From a virus, in IMG/VR virus record IMGVR_UViG_3300045988_066741: a stretch of DNA of 41,315 nucleotides; one strand, given 5' to 3'. The notes beneath the pieces were generated by a model. It was not told the DNA's origin. It ran no database searches and worked only from the letters and a program-made list of their open reading frames with translations. The position numbers and the translations under genes are program-made. Positions 22,928 through 28,351 of this stretch are shown piece by piece. Within the stretch, counting starts at the first letter, position 1, and the number at the start of each line of letters is the position of its first letter.

Positions 22928-22953
22928 GGCGCCAGGTTACTTTTCCTGGCGTT
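22928..22953 (+). terminator. Hairpin terminator after int
   Basis: CGCCAGG (22930-22936) / CCTGGCG (22945-22951), followed by a T-rich tail. The right arm lies within the 3' end of the convergent gene. Confidence 0.5.
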
Positions 22954-23137
22954 CCTTTATGTCTTTTCTGATCAGCTGCTTCAGGTATGCGTTGGTCGAG
23001 GTTCCTTCTTCGTTTATTTTCTTTAGATGATCCAGGATATCCTTGTCCAGCTTCATGTTCAGCTTGACGGTCTTGTTTGTGTAGTGCTCAGACAGCCACT
23101 TGTTTGTAGCGTCTTTCTGTGCTTCTGATACAGCCAT
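22937..23137 (-). CDS. Ribbon-helix-helix (CopG/Arc-like) small DNA-binding protein
   Basis: 66 aa. The layout is a strand (KTVKLNMKL), a helix (DKDILDHLKKI) and a second helix (STNAYLKQLIRKDI). SD GGAGGAG. Confidence 0.55.
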   Translation of the reverse strand: MAVSEAQKDATNKWLSEHYTNKTVKLNMKLDKDILDHLKKINEEGTSTNAYLKQLIRKDIKERQEK

Positions 23138-23178: not shown

Positions 23179-23595
23179 CTAGTCTATCTTAAGCTGGATC
23201 GCTGGGATCTCTTTATCTCTGTACTGAATCTGAGTCACCTTTTCCAGTTGTGCTCCAGCCTGTTCAAAATACCAGACACAACGTATCGAATCTGTCCAAG
23301 TGGAGGAATATGTGAAGTGCTTTATTCCATTCTCTTTCATGATTTTAACGTATGAATTTACCTTTTCTGAATTGAAGACTGAATCGAAATTCAGGAATTC
23401 GTTTCCATCCTCAGCGGCTTCTCTGTACGCCCGGTAAACTTCATAGAAGTCCAGCGTTTCCCATTCGAGCATTTTGTTCTGGTGTTCCTTCATCAGCATT
23501 CGCGCTGCGTTTCTTGTTTCCTCATCCTTTGCTTCTCTGTAGGTTCTGATGATTTCATCTTCGAGCCTGCTGTAGTATTCAAATTTGCTTTCCAT
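23179..23595 (-). CDS. Hypothetical 138-aa protein of an autonomous moron
   Basis: Has its own promoter and is bracketed by terminators. The motif IKHFTYSSTWTDSIRCVWYFEQAG resembles uncharacterised proteins I recall from Firmicute conjugative elements. No function can be assigned. Confidence 0.6.
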   Translation of the reverse strand: MESKFEYYSRLEDEIIRTYREAKDEETRNAARMLMKEHQNKMLEWETLDFYEVYRAYREAAEDGNEFLNFDSVFNSEKVNSYVKIMKENGIKHFTYSSTWTDSIRCVWYFEQAGAQLEKVTQIQYRDKEIPAIQLKID

Positions 23596-23679: not shown

Positions 23680-23704
23680 AAAAAAAGCCCGGATTTCTCC
23701 GGGT
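23680..23704 (-). terminator. Intrinsic terminator
   Basis: Minus-strand RNA reads CCCGGA-gaaa-TCCGGG followed by U7 (plus-strand A7 at 23680-23686). Confidence 0.75.
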
Positions 23705-23710
23705 TTCTGC

Positions 23711-24019
23711 TTATTTGCTTCTTGATTTCTTGACCTTGGCCACGACCTTGTCTCTCGTAGAGGACTTCTTGTTCTTCTGTGCGTAGTAGTTGTCATAGGC
23801 CGCCTTGATTTTAGCAGGTGCGTCTTCAGGCATTGCTACCTTTGCTTCTGCTGCGTCCTTTGCAAATTCCAGAAGGTCTTCCCAGCCTTCCGTATCCTTT
23901 GCATCGAACCAATCGGGTATCATCCCATTGCCTTCTGTGATCCCCTTGACAGTTGCTCCAAGTTGCATAGGATCGTATAAGTCTTTATCGAATCTGTTGC
24001 GTTTATTGTGGTATGCCAT
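23711..24019 (-). CDS. Small protein coupled to the ART-like gene (candidate immunity/partner)
   Basis: 102 aa. SD AGGAGG lies in the 9-nt gap after the upstream stop. No motif recognised. Confidence 0.55.
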   Translation of the reverse strand: MAYHNKRNRFDKDLYDPMQLGATVKGITEGNGMIPDWFDAKDTEGWEDLLEFAKDAAEAKVAMPEDAPAKIKAAYDNYYAQKNKKSSTRDKVVAKVKKSRSK

Positions 24020-24028
24020 ATTGCCTCC

Positions 24029-24898
24029 TTATTTTATCTTGTGGTTATCCTTAAGTTCATCCCATGTACTGCCAGGTCTGTTTGAAGTTTTGCTCATCAT
24101 TGTCTTTGTCTGATTGTCCATAATCAGGGCGCCCCTGTTCAGTACTTCAGTATAATGATCTCCACCGTCCATCATAGCTTTTCTGATTGATTTTTGGTCT
24201 TTTCCTTTTGCTTCGGTCACTATTGAGTAGCCCTTGGACATAGCATAGATGGCTCGTGTCGTGTATTCATCATAGCCGTAGTCCCTTTGGAGATTATACA
24301 CAAGACTTCCGGGTTTCAGGCCCTCGTTAAAGACTTGATCTCGGAGATCCTGCTCATTAATAATCTTGGCATCATCTCTGATTTTAAAGCGCATAACTGC
24401 TGTGCTATTGTCTCGGTTGTAGCCGTAACTTAAGGATCCCGATAGATTTGGCGTCGAATAAAGTCCAAGTCCATGAGCCGTTCCACCATCCCCATTGTAT
24501 AGAAATGTGTCATCCTTGGCTACGTTTTCAGCTACCCCGGCTGCGCTGAATGCAGAGTTACTGTTGACTGTTCGGTAGATTACCGGGCCGTTTTCCTTGT
24601 CGAAGTCGTCGGAATCCATCAGCTGTGGCTTTCCATCAAGCCCTGAGTTATTGATGAACTTCTGATAACTTGTGCCATATGCCCGGTAGCTGTTCTTCTG
24701 AGGTGCCTTGACAGCATTGCTGATAATTGATTCCTGTGCTTTCTGGTCTAGACTCGCGAATGTCTCGGTTCCGGATAGATTCCGACCTACTGCCCCGCCT
24801 CCGCCTGTACTTGCTGCTGAGGTCGCCGCGGCGGCGACTGTGGTGGCTCCACCGCCTGCAGCTCTTCTTTTGACGCTTCTTTGTCCACCTGAGCCCAT
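24029..24898 (-). CDS. ADP-ribosyltransferase-like protein (divergent)
   Basis: 289 aa. N-terminus MGSGGQRS matches the junction-spanning ART. Also YRAYGTSYQKFINNSGL, VIYRTV, GLYSTPN and HYTEVLNRGAL. Fold assignment by motif only. Confidence 0.45.
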   Translation of the reverse strand: MGSGGQRSVKRRAAGGGATTVAAAATSAASTGGGGAVGRNLSGTETFASLDQKAQESIISNAVKAPQKNSYRAYGTSYQKFINNSGLDGKPQLMDSDDFDKENGPVIYRTVNSNSAFSAAGVAENVAKDDTFLYNGDGGTAHGLGLYSTPNLSGSLSYGYNRDNSTAVMRFKIRDDAKIINEQDLRDQVFNEGLKPGSLVYNLQRDYGYDEYTTRAIYAMSKGYSIVTEAKGKDQKSIRKAMMDGGDHYTEVLNRGALIMDNQTKTMMSKTSNRPGSTWDELKDNHKIK

Positions 24899-24921: not shown

Positions 24922-25218
24922 TCAAGACCTCCCGTTTGAGCCTCCGTCGGGGACTGCCACTCTGCCCTCTAGGGAGGCCAGCCGGTCTCGCAGCGCGTTC
25001 TGGTCCTTCTGTAGCGTTGCTACGCGATTGTCCAGTCTGTCACTGATCTTATCTATCTGCTTTTCCAGACGTGTGATGTTGTCGGTTAGGTCATTCAGTT
25101 TTGTCAGAATAACCCCCACCTGCTGGCCATCTTTTTTACTCGCGGTAAGTCGCCCGATTAAAAATCCGGTCAATGCAACGACCAGGCTTCCCAGTGCGAT
25201 GATCTGTCCTGTTTCCAT
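24922..25218 (-). CDS. N-terminally membrane-anchored coiled-coil protein
   Basis: 98 aa. TM segment IIALGSLVVALTGFLIG, followed by heptad-like LNDLTDNITRLEKQIDKISDRLDNRVATLQKD. Adjacent to the holin. Confidence 0.55.
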   Translation of the reverse strand: METGQIIALGSLVVALTGFLIGRLTASKKDGQQVGVILTKLNDLTDNITRLEKQIDKISDRLDNRVATLQKDQNALRDRLASLEGRVAVPDGGSNGRS

Positions 25219-25235
25219 AGACTATCTCCACACTA

Positions 25236-25460
25236 TTACACACTGTCTTTACCGCTTCCATCATCCATCTCAGGCAGTCCAGCGAGGGATGTCAGCAAGG
25301 AATACAGACCGGCAACCGCTGAAGCGCTGGCAACCATTAGCCAGTCCACGTCTTTGATCACCTGTCCTACGGTGAATAGTGATAGTGCTGTCTGTGCCAT
25401 GGTCTTGACGGCTCTTGTTCCTGCTCGTTTCCACCACTCTAGATTGAATAAATTGTTCAT
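25236..25460 (-). CDS. Holin (r1t-like family pattern)
   Basis: 74 aa from the ATG at 25460 (SD AAAAGGAGGAACCCT). Pattern WWKRAGTRAVKTMAQTALSLF...DWLMVASASAVAGLYSLLTSLAGLPE. Two hydrophobic segments. Confidence 0.65.
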   Translation of the reverse strand: MNNLFNLEWWKRAGTRAVKTMAQTALSLFTVGQVIKDVDWLMVASASAVAGLYSLLTSLAGLPEMDDGSGKDSV

Positions 25461-25475
25461 AGGGTTCCTCCTTTT

Positions 25476-25503
25476 AAAATAAAAACCCGGCATTTCTGTC
25501 GGG
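25476..25503 (-). terminator. Intrinsic terminator closing the 5-gene cassette
   Basis: Minus-strand RNA reads CCCGACA-gaaa-TGCCGGG (one mismatch) followed by UUUUUAUUUU. Confidence 0.55.
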
Positions 25504-25511
25504 TATATGCA

Positions 25512-25904
25512 TCAAATGACGCGCTTTACGCTTGCTGTGGCGCTCACCAGTGTTCCTGCTGCACTGACTGTCCAGCTGATCGGTACTGTGGCTCCCTGCG
25601 TGCCCTGGCGTGTCTGTACGGTGCCCTGCACCGGCAGGGTAACTGTTCCGCCTGCTGTTGCGGTAGCCGTGGCCGTTGCACCTGGCACATTTACTCCGCC
25701 TGCCTGCATCTGTACAGTGACGTCTCCAGCAGCAGTGGCTGTGAATACGAAGTTTGCAAGGATTTCAAATGTTCCGGCTTTTCGTATTTCCAGGTTACCG
25801 TTGTTGAGCCTTGCCTCCTGGTTCGTCTGGATGGCTGTAGATCCTAGTGGTATCTTCTGGTTTGCGCTCAGCGCTGTCTGCGTTGTACTAACAGCTACTA
25901 GCAT
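25512..25904 (-). CDS. Stand-alone C1q/TNF-like (BclA C-terminal-domain-like) protein
   Basis: 130 aa, rich in beta-strand residues and T/A/G/V. AGTFEILANFVFTATAAGDVTVQMQAGGVNVPGA ... ASVKRVI parallels the BclA-CTD layout as I recall it. Confidence 0.5.
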   Translation of the reverse strand: MLVAVSTTQTALSANQKIPLGSTAIQTNQEARLNNGNLEIRKAGTFEILANFVFTATAAGDVTVQMQAGGVNVPGATATATATAGGTVTLPVQGTVQTRQGTQGATVPISWTVSAAGTLVSATASVKRVI

Positions 25905-27400: not shown

Positions 27401-28351
27401 CTACTTCACGCGGATTCTCTGTCCAGCGTAGATGCGGTTAGGATCTGCGATGCCGTTCATAGCGGCCAGCTTCTGGTACGTTGTGCCATATCTTGCTGCA
27501 ATGGCTGACAGTGTGTCTCCTCTTCTGATCGTGTAGTAGACGGCTCTTCTTGCGGCCATTTTCCTGTTGACGATTGCCTGCACCACTGCGTAGTTGTAGC
27601 CTGCAGCAGTCAAGCGCTTTTTACGATCTTCACCGTTGCCCCAGGCGCCGTTGATGACTTCCTGTGCGATGACTTCGTTTGACTTTCTTGCTGGTGCTGG
27701 AGCTGGTGCTGGCTTTGACGCAGTTCCGCTCTTGCCTGCATACTTGTTCCATGTGTTTACGTCACCATAGAACACGTTGCAGTCCAGGTTACCGTTGTAG
27801 CCATTCAGGCGGCCGGAGCTTGTCCACTGCCACATGCAGTAGAAAGGCCACCACTTTACTTTTGGTCGTGATCCTGCGCTGGCCATACTGTAGTTGTAGT
27901 CAGGGTTGTTGTCTCTGTACTTGGCTACCCATAGGCCGTAGTCTGCTGCCGCAACTGCAGACCAGTTGTGCGCGTTGACTACTGACTCGGACATGTAGAT
28001 CACTGGCTTTACTCCTGAAAGCTGATATACTCGGTCGAGCCATCTCTTCGCCCAGGCGACGTCGCTTGTGTTTCCGGATTCCCAGTCAAGAATTGGGATA
28101 CCTTTTCCAAAGTATCCACGGCAGTTGTTGTAGAAGTATTCTGCTTCTCTGACTGCGTCATTTGTCGGTCTAGCGAAATGATAGAATCCGAAAGGCTTGC
28201 CCAGCTTGATTGCCTGCTGGATGAATTTGTCGCAGTACTTGTCTACGAAGTTGAGGCCTTCCGTTGCCTTTGCAATCACGAAATCGCAGGCAACATCTGA
28301 AATGTTCAGGCCTGCCTGCCAGTTTGATACATCGATACCGTTCATTGTCAT
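27401..28351 (-). CDS. Endolysin: GH25 muramidase plus CW_7 repeat plus LysM
   Basis: N-terminus [10 protein letters not shown]...[10 protein letters not shown] (GH25). Middle [32 protein letters not shown] (Cpl-7-type repeat). C-terminus [29 protein letters not shown] (LysM). Confidence 0.9.

Follow-up and report, generated by a model that had tools for sequence, protein, structure and literature searches.

Results

A short leader peptide is shared by two toxin-like genes of one phage

Why should two divergent toxin-like genes, lying about 17 kb apart in one phage genome, begin with almost the same peptide? The question arose on a 41,315-nt viral contig (IMG/VR record IMGVR_UViG_3300045988_066741; this whole stretch is called the window below), in which the original prediction had described a 289-aa open reading frame (ORF) and a junction-spanning ADP-ribosyltransferase gene (ART1), both starting MGSGG(Q/R)RS with seven of the first eight residues identical. 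Both starts were found as described. The source phage is temperate, given that an integrase is present and that its relatives are integrated prophages. The first 141 nt of the window are the same as its last 141 nt, representing the assembly overlap of a circular contig, and ART1 is therefore 234 aa and not 281 aa long. Its path leads from 588 to 1 and then from 41174 to 41058, with 588 + 117 nt giving 234 codons and a stop. The features of the two genes and their surroundings are as follows:

24029..24898 (-): gene of the 289-aa putative tagged effector, starting MGSGGQRSVKRR, with tag, linker and a predicted PARP-like/ART-PolyVal-like ART domain
24863..24898 (-): leader or tag, codons 1-12 (MGSGGQRSVKRR), delimited by conservation and by its match to the ART1 leader
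24779..24862 (-): low-complexity Ala/Gly/Thr/Ser linker, aa 13-40, delimited by the AF2 model and by variation among homologues
24029..24778 (-): helical lead-in (F..[LM]D..Q helix, aa 42-64) and ART core
23711..24019 (-): 102-aa partner ORF, with an acidic three-helix body and a constant Lys-rich C-terminal tail (KKSSTRDKVVAKVKKSRSK)
23681..23710 (-): intrinsic terminator closing the late operon, CCCGGAGAAATCCGGG then CTTTTTTT
1..588 (-): 5' part of ART1, the second tagged cargo (R-S-E ADP-ribosyltransferase), starting MGSGGRRSPKGG at 588
41058..41174 (-): 3' part of ART1 (41175-41315 only repeats window positions 1-141)

Searched with a degenerate DNA pattern for MGSGG[QRK..][R]S, the window gave exactly these two gene starts, and 100 shuffles gave none. 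MGSGGQRS[VI]K opens each of the 61 full-length homologues of the 289-aa protein, while close ART1 homologues retain MGSGG[RIV][RK]S[PA]KGG. Residues 1-8, 10 and 12 were invariant in 29 aligned homologues whose overall identity falls to 41%, and the mean pairwise identity in the family was 0.92 for residues 1-12 versus 0.52 for the domain, making the tag the most conserved part of the protein. The linker varies in length and composition among homologues and is replaced by A/P/Q-rich linkers in other lineages. DNA-pattern scans of IMG/VR for the exact MGSGG leader returned two families of this phage group, one chance 24-aa ORF and nothing else, so that this exact tag is lineage-restricted. Eukaryote-type N-myristoylation (consensus MGxxxS/T) was considered and dismissed, as position 6 is Q or R and other lineages start with MAK.. 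or MGR...

The leader co-varies between unrelated cargo proteins of the same lineage

One and the same lineage-specific leader, such as MGRGRL.., MAKVRR.., MAKSSRGG.. or MGRGSSKAGG.., stands on both the R-S-E ART and the PARP-like protein (the family of the 289-aa protein) of a phage in each of seven lineages. Over residues 2-13, true pairs share 6-11 identities and mismatched pairs 0-7, and the true pairing was the unique best among 5040 permutations. The leader is not confined to these two families. In lineage L041 four consecutive genes start with MGRGSSKA and in L038 four start with MGGRG; each of these genes is preceded by an SD sequence, and both strings occur nowhere else in the six-frame translations. 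A third cargo family (125 homologues) displays the same leader classes, with some variants placed behind a host Prp/L27-type cleavage site. The pattern recurs over four cargo families and seven lineages. The original prediction had staked its case on the leader recurring in homologues and on other cargo; with invariance within the family, co-variation in seven lineages and presence on third and fourth cargo types, the result was positive and exceeded expectation. Leader class was not seen to be linked to MuF type, as MuF is of the PF06152 type in some lineages and of the PF04233 type in others, and no co-variation of the leader with a receptor emerged, which counts against an address function.

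The shared N-terminus could be functionless and have arisen by chance or through 5' ends being converted or duplicated repeatedly among neighbouring phage genes. Conversion would be favoured by the adjacency of the tagged genes in most lineages. The codons argue against this idea. The leaders of the 289-aa protein and ART1 agree at 8 of their first 13 residues, and at 4 of these 8 the codons differ (Ser3 is TCA in one leader and AGC in the other). Codon differences were present in all four pairs compared, affecting 3-5 identical residues per pair and including the TCN/AGY serine switch, and nucleotide identity over the leader was only 22-27 of 39. Conservation at the peptide level rather than a recent DNA duplication, as initially proposed, thus held in the window and in three further lineages. 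Together with the distance between the two window genes, the exceptional conservation of the tag, its recurrence across cargo families and lineages and the empty shuffles, this leads us to disfavour a functionless leader as very improbable.

Tagged genes lie next to head genes and behind a DUF4417 gene

All tagged genes belong to late virion-gene operons, with TerS-TerL-SPP1 portal-MuF as neighbours or in a position between MuF and scaffold; in most lineages they are located just upstream of TerS or within the head module. The window carries the following further genes:

600..1361 (-): DUF4417 gene directly 5' of ART1 (PF14386, 2.7e-44)
40844-41047 (-): 67-aa partner ORF of ART1, with a Lys-rich tail, after a 10-nt gap
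1904..3472 (-): MuF(Phage_min_cap2)-Ntox50 fusion, 522 aa (PF06152, 1.5e-80; PF15542, 4.6e-17)
1729..1956 (-): 75-aa acidic ORF after Ntox50, a putative immunity protein, with a GGGAGG SD and no Lys tail

A DUF4417 gene, often fused to ParB_N, is found directly upstream of the ART/cargo array in L025, L027, L028, L029, L038, L040 and L041, and accompanies tagged-cargo arrays in every lineage; the L025 array additionally contains a Macro-domain gene. According to Pfam, the MuF domain is absent from the 289-aa protein and from ART1, and present in the 522-aa MuF-Ntox50 protein. From this sequence comparison we propose MuF-Ntox50 as the covalently targeted counterpart, in the same phage, of the tagged effectors.

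The original prediction had also suggested processing as in T4, where the capsid-targeting sequence (CTS) is removed by the prohead protease gp21. This part found no support: there was no prohead protease among the head-module genes scanned (a subset of the ORFs) and no L/I-x-E site, nor did the 289-aa window protein show any obvious cleavage site. A host protease might act in some relatives, as 10 of 114 and 4 of 50 family members carry an L27/Prp-type site, x(n)LQFF'GG.. (the apostrophe marks the cut). Cleavage at this predicted site would expose the same GGRG.. N-terminus as the M'GGRG.. forms. Prp cleaves the capsid and scaffold proteins of 80alpha (PMC5744158) and recognizes the motif MLxx(D/N)LQ(F/L)F'A(S/H)KK (PMC9405229).

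The 289-aa protein has an ART-like fold with a putative Arg-Tyr active site

The proposed ART-like fold of the 289-aa protein was confirmed by AF2 and Foldseek, and the three strands quoted for it were the right ones. The AF2 model has a pLDDT of 81, with values above 90 in the core and below 50 for residues 1-39, i.e., the disordered tag and linker. Foldseek searches of BFVD gave matches with E 3.6e-11 to 8.7e-4, including an 'ART-PolyVal-like domain-containing protein', while the best PDB matches, none of them below E 1e-3, were all ART-fold proteins (a RES toxin with E 0.0099 and prob 0.82, PARP13, Tpt1, NatT and ExoA). The motifs VIYRTV (R109), GLYSTP (Y147) and HYTEVLNRG (E251, R255) correspond to the conserved ART strands, and DSSP places their residues on strands of the model. 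In this core, strand 1 bears R109, aa 182-243 form a helical insert, and the last catalytic strand contains E251, N254 and R255. A nicotinamide-pocket signature (G143-x-G145-x-Y147, S155, Y158) aligns to the GxGxYFA..S..Y motif of PARP12, tankyrase and PARP1.

Most of these positions are nearly invariant among 114 representatives: G143, Y147, G223 and R255 in 113 each, R109 in 112 and Y158 in 111. G145 is found in 93, and S155 in 76, with Ala in 24. A strand-1 His is not typical of the family, since position 109 is Arg in 112 of the 114 and His in 2; His is present in the members from L025 and L028 (LYHS / LFHT). On strand 5, the window protein carries E251 and N254 as candidates for the catalytic-acid position. 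In most of the family, however, position 251 is V, M, N, T or I, and position 254 is N in 60 and D in 34 of the 114 members. Because the canonical catalytic acid is not conserved family-wide, the 289-aa protein may be no conventional transferase.

Judged by model and sequence, the 289-aa protein is a member of the PARP-like/ART-PolyVal group (R-Y-[N/D/E]), unlike ART1, which is of the R-S-E type and matches Pfam PF03496 (ADPrib_exo_Tox, 3.3e-12) with its YRG, STS and QAE motifs all present. The 289-aa protein gave no PF03496 match and has Y-S-T for S-T-S and Y-T-E for Q/E-x-E. An hhalign comparison of the PARP-like and R-S-E profiles was not significant (probability 1.6%); its alignment, suggestive as it is, spanned only the region from the post-linker helix to the YR(T/G) strand. 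Weak matches to Pfam PARP (PF00644) were seen in 49 of 114 relatives (best 2.4e-5) and to ART-PolyVal (PF18760) in 21 of 114 (best 7.3e-4), with scores, where listed, of 13-19 bits against a curated cutoff of 26.7 bits. The 289-aa protein itself had no Pfam match at E<=1 and no PHROG, PADLOC or NCBIfam match. In other phages the PARP-like domain is fused to MuF (P0222, P0225) or to portal, NUDIX and R-S-E ART (P0212), and in these fusions the match begins past the tag, linker and helix region, at about profile position 76-86.

The family comprises 371 representatives, 61 of its members being close homologues of the 289-aa protein. A tblastn search with four family members against 50,697 GenBank phage records gave no match, and hence no cultured annotated relative, while a GTDB scan identified a single prophage, in Erysipelotrichaceae bacterium 7770_A6. 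The phage carrying both tagged toxins is a gut prophage.

The catalytic domain and the body of its partner are exchanged as one cassette

As stated originally, the 102-aa ORF starts 9 nt 3' of the 289-aa ORF, with the SD AAGGAGG 5 nt before its ATG, and is directly followed by the terminator (stem 23688-23703, then a T-run). The predicted layout of three toxins, each with a small ORF behind it, was likewise found at 289-aa/102-aa, ART1/67-aa and MuF-Ntox50/75-aa, where the 75-aa ORF overlaps the toxin gene by 53 nt. Comparison with prophage L010, which has the same backbone, revealed how the first pair is coupled. By blastn, the 90-98% DNA identity ends at 24795, 34 codons into the gene, and picks up again at 23781, for the last ~23 codons of the small ORF, which defines one further feature:

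23782..24794 (-): swappable cassette, catalytic domain plus body of the partner ORF

The corresponding break against L007 lies at 24493..23800. The 102-aa ORF therefore swaps together with the catalytic domain, in support of the claimed effector-partner coupling, while there is no change in the tag, the linker and the Lys-rich tail; depending on the domain variant, the partner has a length of 102, 101 or 85 aa. A single-sequence AF2 prediction of the 102-aa ORF shows helices at 17-31, 43-58 and 67-84 and a low-confidence tail, and the body has a pI of 4.7 as compared to 11.3 for the tail. Searches with Pfam, PHROGs, PADLOC and NCBIfam gave no match for the 102-aa ORF, in which no antitoxin domain (HTH/Xre, macro) was recognisable, and none for the 75-aa ORF. 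The ORFs that follow the R-S-E ART in L029, L025, L027 and L028 share with the 67-aa ORF the motif ..G.(F)IQ(V/L)DT(L/I)PG / GLP.(Q/R)PFTQLD.

Wherever a tagged ART or PARP-like cargo was examined, the small ORF behind it ended in a Lys/Arg-rich tail, a feature for which an address function of the tag does not account. The tags, too, are all rich in Gly, Arg and Lys, so that generic nucleic-acid binding is possible. The tag could thus be a flexible, nucleic-acid-binding arm that tethers the effectors, and through their Lys tails the partners, to phage DNA or to ribosomes/RNA. SPP1-type MuF proteins do bind DNA. Moreover, the tags are disordered and rich in Ser as well, and they resemble the N-terminus of mature ribosomal protein L27. 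In Firmicutes, Prp likewise unmasks that N-terminus, and the L27 pro-peptide end LQFF' is copied exactly in some relatives. Yet this resemblance to mature L27 is compositional only and carries no statistics, and generic electrostatics would predict neither the exact lineage match across unrelated cargo (MAKVRR.F.TS.G vs MGRGRL.. vs MGSGG.RS) nor the invariance of non-basic tag positions. We thus regard such an arm as unlikely.

The 289-aa gene belongs to the late operon

Downstream of the lysis genes, in the order holin (PF16945), XhlA-like gene and 289-aa gene, the latter occupies the att-proximal end, as seen in two different phage backbones. This position after the lysis genes and near the attachment site is the classic slot of lysogenic-conversion morons. 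The pair might accordingly be a prophage toxin-antitoxin (TA) or moron module that is active in the lysogen or at lysis and never packaged, with the tag as a stability, regulatory or processing signal (e.g., a protease or degron site) common to the toxins of the phage. The toxin-then-small-ORF layout, the polymorphic cassette and the RES-type TA toxins among the best PDB fold matches would agree with such a module, as would the Prp-type site in relatives, by which host proteases would touch this N-terminus. However, the gene has the orientation of the late operon and shares its terminator, and no separate promoter was found for it; the single promoter-like match (24925-24897) overlaps the start codon and was dismissed. 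The moron slot is also not the rule, considering the location of the tagged genes near TerS or in the head module in most lineages. With no PADLOC match, no antitoxin-type domain and the same domain fused to MuF and portal elsewhere, we consider a TA or moron module improbable.

The neighbouring holin and XhlA-like genes could equally hint at a secreted signal-arrest-release (SAR) endolysin or lysis accessory, all the more as the N-terminus has KRR followed by AAGGGATTVAAAATSAAS, a Gly/Ala-rich stretch after basic residues. We rejected this explanation as scarcely credible: a canonical GH25+CW_7+LysM endolysin is encoded at 27401-28351, the linker of relatives, with its Lys, Gln and Pro residues, is not hydrophobic, the protein has the fold of an ART and not of a muralytic enzyme, and ART1 bears the same tag far from the lysis genes.

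Discussion

A proposed lineage-specific address tag on stand-alone effectors

The co-varying tag is the main new result of this analysis. From sequence, the tag has the look of an "address label" not described before, its most likely use being the loading of proteins into the head. In the model that we favour, the 289-aa gene would encode a late-expressed, stand-alone effector composed of a 10-12-residue Gly/Arg/Lys tag, a disordered variable linker and an ART-fold domain, the latter with an intact nicotinamide-pocket signature, an Arg where strand 1 would have His, and no catalytic acid common to the whole family. The tag would be a phage-lineage-specific label on all stand-alone effectors, here ART1 and the 289-aa protein. 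It would most likely dock them non-covalently at the portal, MuF or scaffold of the assembling procapsid, from which they would be ejected with the DNA into the next host. Indirect support for such packaging comes from the fusions of the same domain to MuF and portal, the location in late operons and the variants with a Prp site. Tagged effectors would then represent a split version of MuF-toxin and portal-polyvalent fusions, functionally analogous to the T4 CTS. The 102-aa partner might bind the catalytic domain as an inhibitor or chaperone and would be exchanged together with it, recombination taking place in the constant flanks, with the tag/linker on one side and the Lys-rich tail on the other. 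This model as a whole, comprising the three-part tagged effector, its non-covalent capsid loading and a partner that binds the catalytic domain, appears to us somewhat more probable than its alternatives taken together.

A broader reading has slightly less than an even chance in our judgement. It would hold that SPP1-portal/MuF siphoviruses of Firmicutes possess a general cargo-addressing system, in which each lineage puts its own ~12-residue tag on effector arrays for capsid loading in trans and injection; that the cargo includes the R-S-E ART, the PARP-like ART, an HxH..S..D protein and others; that in some lineages the host protease Prp, which acts on L27, unmasks the tag; and that each effector comes with a small Lys-tailed partner, and the array with a preceding DUF4417 gene.

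To our knowledge, how proteins are selected for packaging and injection is largely unknown in tailed phages other than T4, P1, P22 and N4, and for temperate phages of Firmicutes we know of no proposed route apart from covalent MuF or portal fusions. Literature searches yielded nothing relevant on a tag of this kind, on the function of DUF4417 or on the biochemistry of ART-PolyVal. If the address-tag model is true, a short peptide would be enough to load arbitrary proteins into the heads of such phages, which would provide a rule for telling which prophage genes are injected effectors, explain how polymorphic toxin cassettes are exchanged without loss of delivery, and open a way to load foreign proteins into capsids, e.g., to deliver proteins in the gut or for use in phage therapy. 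A large family of stand-alone PARP-like ART-fold proteins, with an unusual Arg-Tyr configuration of the putative active site, also emerges from the analysis. As this family is tightly linked to the R-S-E ART, to Macro/NUDIX genes and to DUF4417, the genomic context points to an ADP-ribose-based host-takeover or anti-defence module.

Comparison with known systems

In contrast to type II TA and defence systems such as RES-Xre and DarTG, the pair described here has no antitoxin domain and matches no defence model. A closer likeness exists to Prp-processed proteins (L27; the capsid and scaffold of 80alpha), given that a subset of relatives starts with x(3-20)[DN][LI]Q[FLY]F'GG.., which fits the Prp motif, and that, as with long and short L27, the exposed N-terminus would be the same with or without processing. 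The differences from Prp substrates are that P1' is Gly and not Ala, that the window protein comes without a pro-peptide, and that cleavage is a prediction from sequence.

With regard to the catalytic domain, eukaryotic mono-ART PARPs (H-Y-[I/L/Y], e.g., PARP10/12) have the same GxGxYFA...S..Y pocket, and in the 289-aa family, as in them, the residue at the third-motif position is usually hydrophobic and not Glu. The likeness to them is at the motif level only (E 0.01-0.2), with Arg for His, and R255 and K172/K178 are extra invariants of the 289-aa family. ART-PolyVal/Tox-ART-HYD2 (PF18760; Iyer et al. 2017, PMC5512222) shares the fold, the strand-2 Tyr motif and the phage provenance, as well as fusions to portal, MuF, NUDIX and Zeta-toxin modules and tandem domain repeats, whereas the 289-aa protein is stand-alone and single-domain, has a strand-1 Arg (112/114) and not His, and Asn in place of the strand-5 Asp.

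MuF polymorphic toxins of temperate Firmicute phages carry variable toxin domains, commonly ARTs, together with a small downstream ORF; their cassettes are exchanged, and delivery with the DNA has been proposed (Jamet et al. 2017, PMC5576092). The system described here likewise combines a constant N-terminal part with a variable toxin and a cognate small ORF that are exchanged together in a temperate phage. However, the 289-aa protein and ART1 have a 12-residue tag and a linker in the place of MuF, and this tag is lineage-specific and common to several genes in trans.

Finally, T4 packages and injects cargo of the Alt type (PMC5512222). The T4 CTS, present on Alt and IPI-III, resembles the tag in that it is also one short N-terminal peptide on several unrelated, late-expressed proteins, one of them an ADP-ribosyltransferase. 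It differs in its sequence, which is unrelated, and in its setting: here a long disordered linker comes after the tag, every cargo is accompanied by a small partner ORF of its own, a host Prp-type site precedes the tag in some relatives in place of processing by gp21, the phages are SPP1-portal/MuF siphoviruses of Firmicutes, and packaging is a prediction. What the two systems have in common is the placement of one peptide on multiple cargo proteins, namely on two in the window and on up to four in lineages L038 and L041.

Genome organization of the phage

The window ends, 1-141 and 41175-41315, form an exact 141-nt direct repeat, which is a k-mer overlap from assembly of a circular phage molecule with a true length of 41,174 bp. 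ORFs read across the junction therefore gain a spurious 47-aa duplication. This concerns the ADP-ribosyltransferase (ART) gene ART1 (588->1 then 41174->41058, minus strand), which without the duplicated 141 nt encodes 234 aa, starts with MGSGGRRSPKGG and is a bona fide R-S-E ART (PF03496, 3.3e-12). Near-identical prophages, one of them carried by Erysipelotrichaceae bacterium 7770_A6, share one chromosomal site adjoining an ABM-domain gene and an amino-acid ABC transporter. Nearly all late genes lie on the minus strand, and Pfam scans gave the order listed below.

Gene order of the window
Head module, first part (-): ParB_N-N6/N4 methylase, putative small terminase (no Pfam match), large terminase, SPP1-like portal
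Head module, continued (-): MuF(Phage_min_cap2)-Ntox50, 75-aa ORF, YjcQ, DUF4417, ART1, 67-aa ORF
Head module, end (-): scaffold (PF06810), SU10-like capsid protein; tail genes next
After the tail genes (-): GH25-CW_7-LysM endolysin, four small genes, r1t-type holin, XhlA-like TM/coiled-coil protein
Late-operon end (-): 289-aa gene (24029-24898), 102-aa ORF (23711-24019), terminator
Beyond the terminator: DUF7698, RHH protein; tyrosine integrase on the opposite strand

The coordinates originally predicted for the 289-aa gene and the 102-aa ORF held, as did the 9-nt spacer with AAGGAGG and the terminator; the two other toxin-then-small-ORF pairs described (ART1 and MuF-Ntox50) are also present. 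The lysis genes are split, with the endolysin at 27401-28351 and the XhlA-like protein and r1t-type holin at 24922-25218(-) and 25236-25493(-), respectively; one of the four intervening small genes (25512-25904) has a weak BclA_C-like match. As a canonical lysin is already encoded, we rejected an endolysin reading of the 289-aa protein, whose gene follows the holin. The DUF7698 protein (23179-23595(-)) and the small RHH (CopG-like) protein (22937-23137(-)), flanked by the late-operon terminator on one side and the integrase/att end on the other, are kept in all related prophages. The Arg/Glu-rich ORF 257-625(-), which overlaps ART1 in a different frame, is almost certainly not a gene, and the many long plus-strand ORFs opposing late genes are likewise antisense artefacts.

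The 289-aa protein adopts an ART fold

The 289-aa protein had no match in Pfam, PHROG, PADLOC or NCBIfam. Its 61 close homologues are all metagenomic, while a profile search returned 371 representatives at E<=1e-3, chiefly stand-alone proteins of 250-280 aa. AlphaFold2, run with 29 homologues, gave a pLDDT of 81, with residues 1-39 disordered and a core from about residue 42 above 90. Foldseek against viral models returned ten matches (E 3.6e-11 to 8.7e-4) to uncharacterised phage proteins, including one annotated "ART-PolyVal-like", and the weaker matches included further polyvalent proteins. Against the PDB no match fell below 1e-3; the top non-spurious matches were all ART folds, led by an RES toxin (E 0.0099, prob 0.82) and including PARP13, VPA0770, Tpt1/KptA, NatT, exotoxin A and PARP1. 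Among 114 family representatives, 49 matched Pfam PARP weakly (best 2.4e-5) and 21 matched ART-PolyVal (best 7.3e-4).

The most conserved family block, GG..yG.G.YFa.....S..Yg, aligns with the nicotinamide-pocket motif of PARP12, tankyrase and PARP1. In window numbering, R109 (112/114), G143, Y147, Y158, G223 and R255 are near-invariant, and S155, K172, K178 and Y249 are strongly conserved. Based on this conservation, the family combines the strand-2 Tyr pocket typical of the H-Y-E/D clade with an Arg in place of the strand-1 His. The ARTs of polyvalent proteins have been described as H-Y-D (Iyer et al., PMC5512222). In this family, 60 members have N and 34 have D at position 254, and most have a hydrophobic or polar residue at position 251; the corresponding residues of the window protein are N254 and E251. 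All peptide motifs originally quoted for the protein were found, and YRT, GLYST and YTEVL had been correctly chosen as ART strands; the roughly 60 extra residues between motifs two and three are accounted for in the model by a helical insert (aa 182-243). The ART fold is solidly supported, and the protein may be catalytically competent.

A lineage-specific leader is shared by unrelated effectors

As originally predicted, ART1 and the 289-aa protein share an MGSGG leader. A degenerate leader pattern matched these two gene starts and nothing else in the window, and 0/100 shuffles. Residues 1-12 are the most conserved stretch of the 289-aa family, with a mean pairwise identity of 0.92 compared to 0.52 for the domain. 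Close ART1 homologues keep MGSGG[RIV][RK]S[PA]KGG, and distant ones start with MGGRGGS.., MGRGRL.., MAKVRR.. or MGRGSSKAGG... We retrieved the contigs encoding these distant ARTs and searched them using an HMM built on the PARP-like family, to which the 289-aa protein belongs. Whenever both families occurred in one phage they carried the same leader, which differed from phage to phage.

Leaders of R-S-E ART and PARP-like proteins encoded by the same phage (lineage: R-S-E ART; PARP-like)
Window: MGSGGRRSPKGG; MGSGGQRSVKRR
L025: MGRGRLAASHG; MGRGRLSGQQG
L028: MAKVRRAFATSHG; (V)AKVRRSFNTSQG
L027 (PARP-like gene frameshifted): MGGRGSSTHGSHG; MGGRGGSFGGSQG
L038: MGGRGSASASR; MGGRGSSSTSS
L039/L040: MAKSSRGGRRGG; MAKSSRGGKRT
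L041: MGRGSSKAGGGGGGG; MGRGSSKAGGGGIAG

Within residues 2-13, 6-11 positions agree in true pairs and 0-7 in mismatched pairs, and the true pairing is the unique maximum of all 5040 permutations. In the L027 gene (11004-11780), a 63-aa ORF bears the tag and the remaining domain lies in another frame, reflecting either a pseudogene or an assembly error.

The tag could also be a functionless product of gene conversion. This reading is disfavoured by the codons: the window pair has 8 identical residues within the first 13, four of them with different codons (Ser3 is TCA versus AGC), and across the four pairs examined 3-5 identical residues per pair differ in codon, with a nucleotide identity of 22-27/39. 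Such divergence shows peptide-level selection, as opposed to a recent gene conversion, and bears out the original view that no recent DNA duplication was involved.

Effector domain and partner are exchanged as a unit

When window DNA was compared with prophages of the same backbone, 90-98% identity extended from upstream through the first 34 codons (tag and linker), ended at 24795, was undetectable throughout the catalytic domain and the bulk of the small ORF, and returned at 23781, covering the final ~23 codons of the 102-aa ORF, which encode KKSSTRDKVVAKVKKSRSK. Phages with a 42%-identical domain variant have an 85-aa partner instead of 102 aa, while a variant diverging in the C-terminal half alone (break at 24493) has a 101-aa partner with a changed middle. 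Behind the disordered linker, the ART domain and the body of its cognate partner therefore move together between constant flanks, as domain and partner do in polymorphic toxin/immunity loci.

The 102-aa partner has an acidic body (pI 4.7), and single-sequence AlphaFold2 modelled three helices with moderate confidence, plus a basic tail. Downstream of each tagged ART or PARP-like cargo examined lies a small ORF of 37-112 aa with a Lys/Arg-rich C-terminus:

Window: 40844-41047 and 23711-24019
L025: 3169-3354 and 4807-5040
L028: 10773-10985 and 11859-11993
L038: 3551-3694 and 4407-4556
L039: ~1262-1375 and ~2194-2310

Those behind R-S-E ARTs have the common motif GLP.(Q/R)PFTQLD / G.FIQ(V/L)DT(I/L)PG. 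Alternatively, the pair could be a toxin-antitoxin or moron module that is not packaged, in which the tag would act as a signal for stability or processing; the att-proximal position and the RES-like fold favour this reading.

Cargo arrays, leader classes and genomic context

The leader also occurs on other cargo in relatives, for which the original prediction had proposed a search. Four consecutive genes start with MGRGSSKA in L041 (3432-6855) and four with MGGRG in L038 (1398-4556), each with an upstream SD, and both strings are absent elsewhere in the six-frame translations of these contigs. A 240-aa HNHP..FSDGD protein from the arrays, which lacks a Pfam match, defines a third cargo family of 125 homologues in which SHNHP...GGTFS..D is invariant and the same range of leaders recurs; a further cargo type in the arrays is a 240-aa coiled-coil-rich protein, also without a Pfam match.

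Three classes of leader can be distinguished in the PARP-like and third families: MG[S/G/R].G.., M[A/P]K..RGG[K/Q/R]R and x(3-20)[DN][LI]Q[FLY]F-GG[R/S]G... The last reproduces the motif at which Prp, the L27 protease of Firmicutes, cleaves: MLxx(D/N)LQ(F/L)F'A(S/H)KK (PMC9405229). Further substrates of Prp are the capsid and scaffolding proteins of 80alpha, and its motif is present on other virion proteins (PMC5744158). Judging from the motif, Prp cleavage of class 3 would expose the same GGRG.. as MGGRG.. after Met removal, the relation that also holds between long and short forms of L27. As its composition resembles that of L27 and the partners carry Lys tails, the tag could itself be a nucleic-acid- or ribosome-binding arm.

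The typical module order is [ParB_N-]DUF4417, tagged cargo array, (ParB-methylase), TerS, TerL, SPP1 portal, MuF; the tagged lineages include some with PF06152-type and some with PF04233-type MuF. In every lineage examined, DUF4417, often fused to ParB_N, immediately precedes the R-S-E ART or the cargo array, whose start it often overlaps, and it may belong to the tag system:

Window 600-1361(-); L025 1645-2352; L027 9043-10011; L028 9334-10017
L029 9323-9988; L038 227-1387; L040 8878-9906; L041 2333-3448

In the window lineage, ART1 lies between the MuF and scaffold genes, and the PARP-like gene has relocated to the late-operon end, behind the holin. The same position is taken by a 46%-identical homologue in L023, a phage with an unrelated backbone and a Dp-1 holin; among the tail-fibre genes of L023 is a reverse transcriptase (RVT_1, 4619-5797), probably part of a diversity-generating retroelement (DGR).

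The PARP-like domain is fused to capsid-associated proteins

In other phages, the PARP-like domain is covalently fused to MuF or portal proteins: P0222 (831 aa) joins it to MuF, P0225 (1715 aa) combines MuF, three copies, AAA_33 and Zeta-toxin modules, and P0212 (2290 aa) combines portal, NUDIX, R-S-E ART and PARP-like domains. P0208 has four to five tandem copies. In P0222, P0225 and P0212 the match starts at about profile position 76-86, past tag, linker and first helices, so that the stand-alone N-terminal module sits where MuF or portal would. R-S-E ART and PARP-like domains are neighbours in six lineages and fused in P0212, where NUDIX lies next to both, and L025 has a Macro-domain gene (ADP-ribose hydrolase type, 3362-3868) between its two tagged ART modules; these associations suggest that both act on a common ADP-ribose-based process.

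P0225 repeats the junction motif FA(F/Y)NPDQERD.(Q/K/R)GRW.PSG ahead of each PARP-like domain. Other polyvalent relatives have HDPKTGRFT (P0165) or GSGHWGHVGVKGQRGGS (P0210), the RGGS core of the latter resembling stand-alone leaders. Going by these resemblances, a common origin with the leaders, or a processing site, is possible.

Discussion

We consider it somewhat probable that the tag, which unrelated late-expressed effectors share in trans, docks them at a putative phage-specific procapsid receptor, so that they would be injected along with the DNA. Packaging is suggested because a host-modifying enzyme made only late would mainly be useful if carried into the next cell, an argument already put forward for T4 Alt and polyvalent proteins. 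For MuF-toxin fusions and polyvalent proteins, packaging and injection have been proposed, and T4 Alt is the ART precedent established by experiment (PMC5576092; PMC5512222).

MuF-fused toxins, polyvalent proteins, the T4 CTS and Prp substrates are described in the literature. Our search found no description of a trans-acting, lineage-specific tag on stand-alone effector arrays, of the Arg-Tyr PARP-like family as such, or of the DUF4417 association. Compared with these known systems, the tag system follows the logic of capsid targeting or of polymorphic toxins in a new molecular form; it would be more novel still if the tag served a different process.
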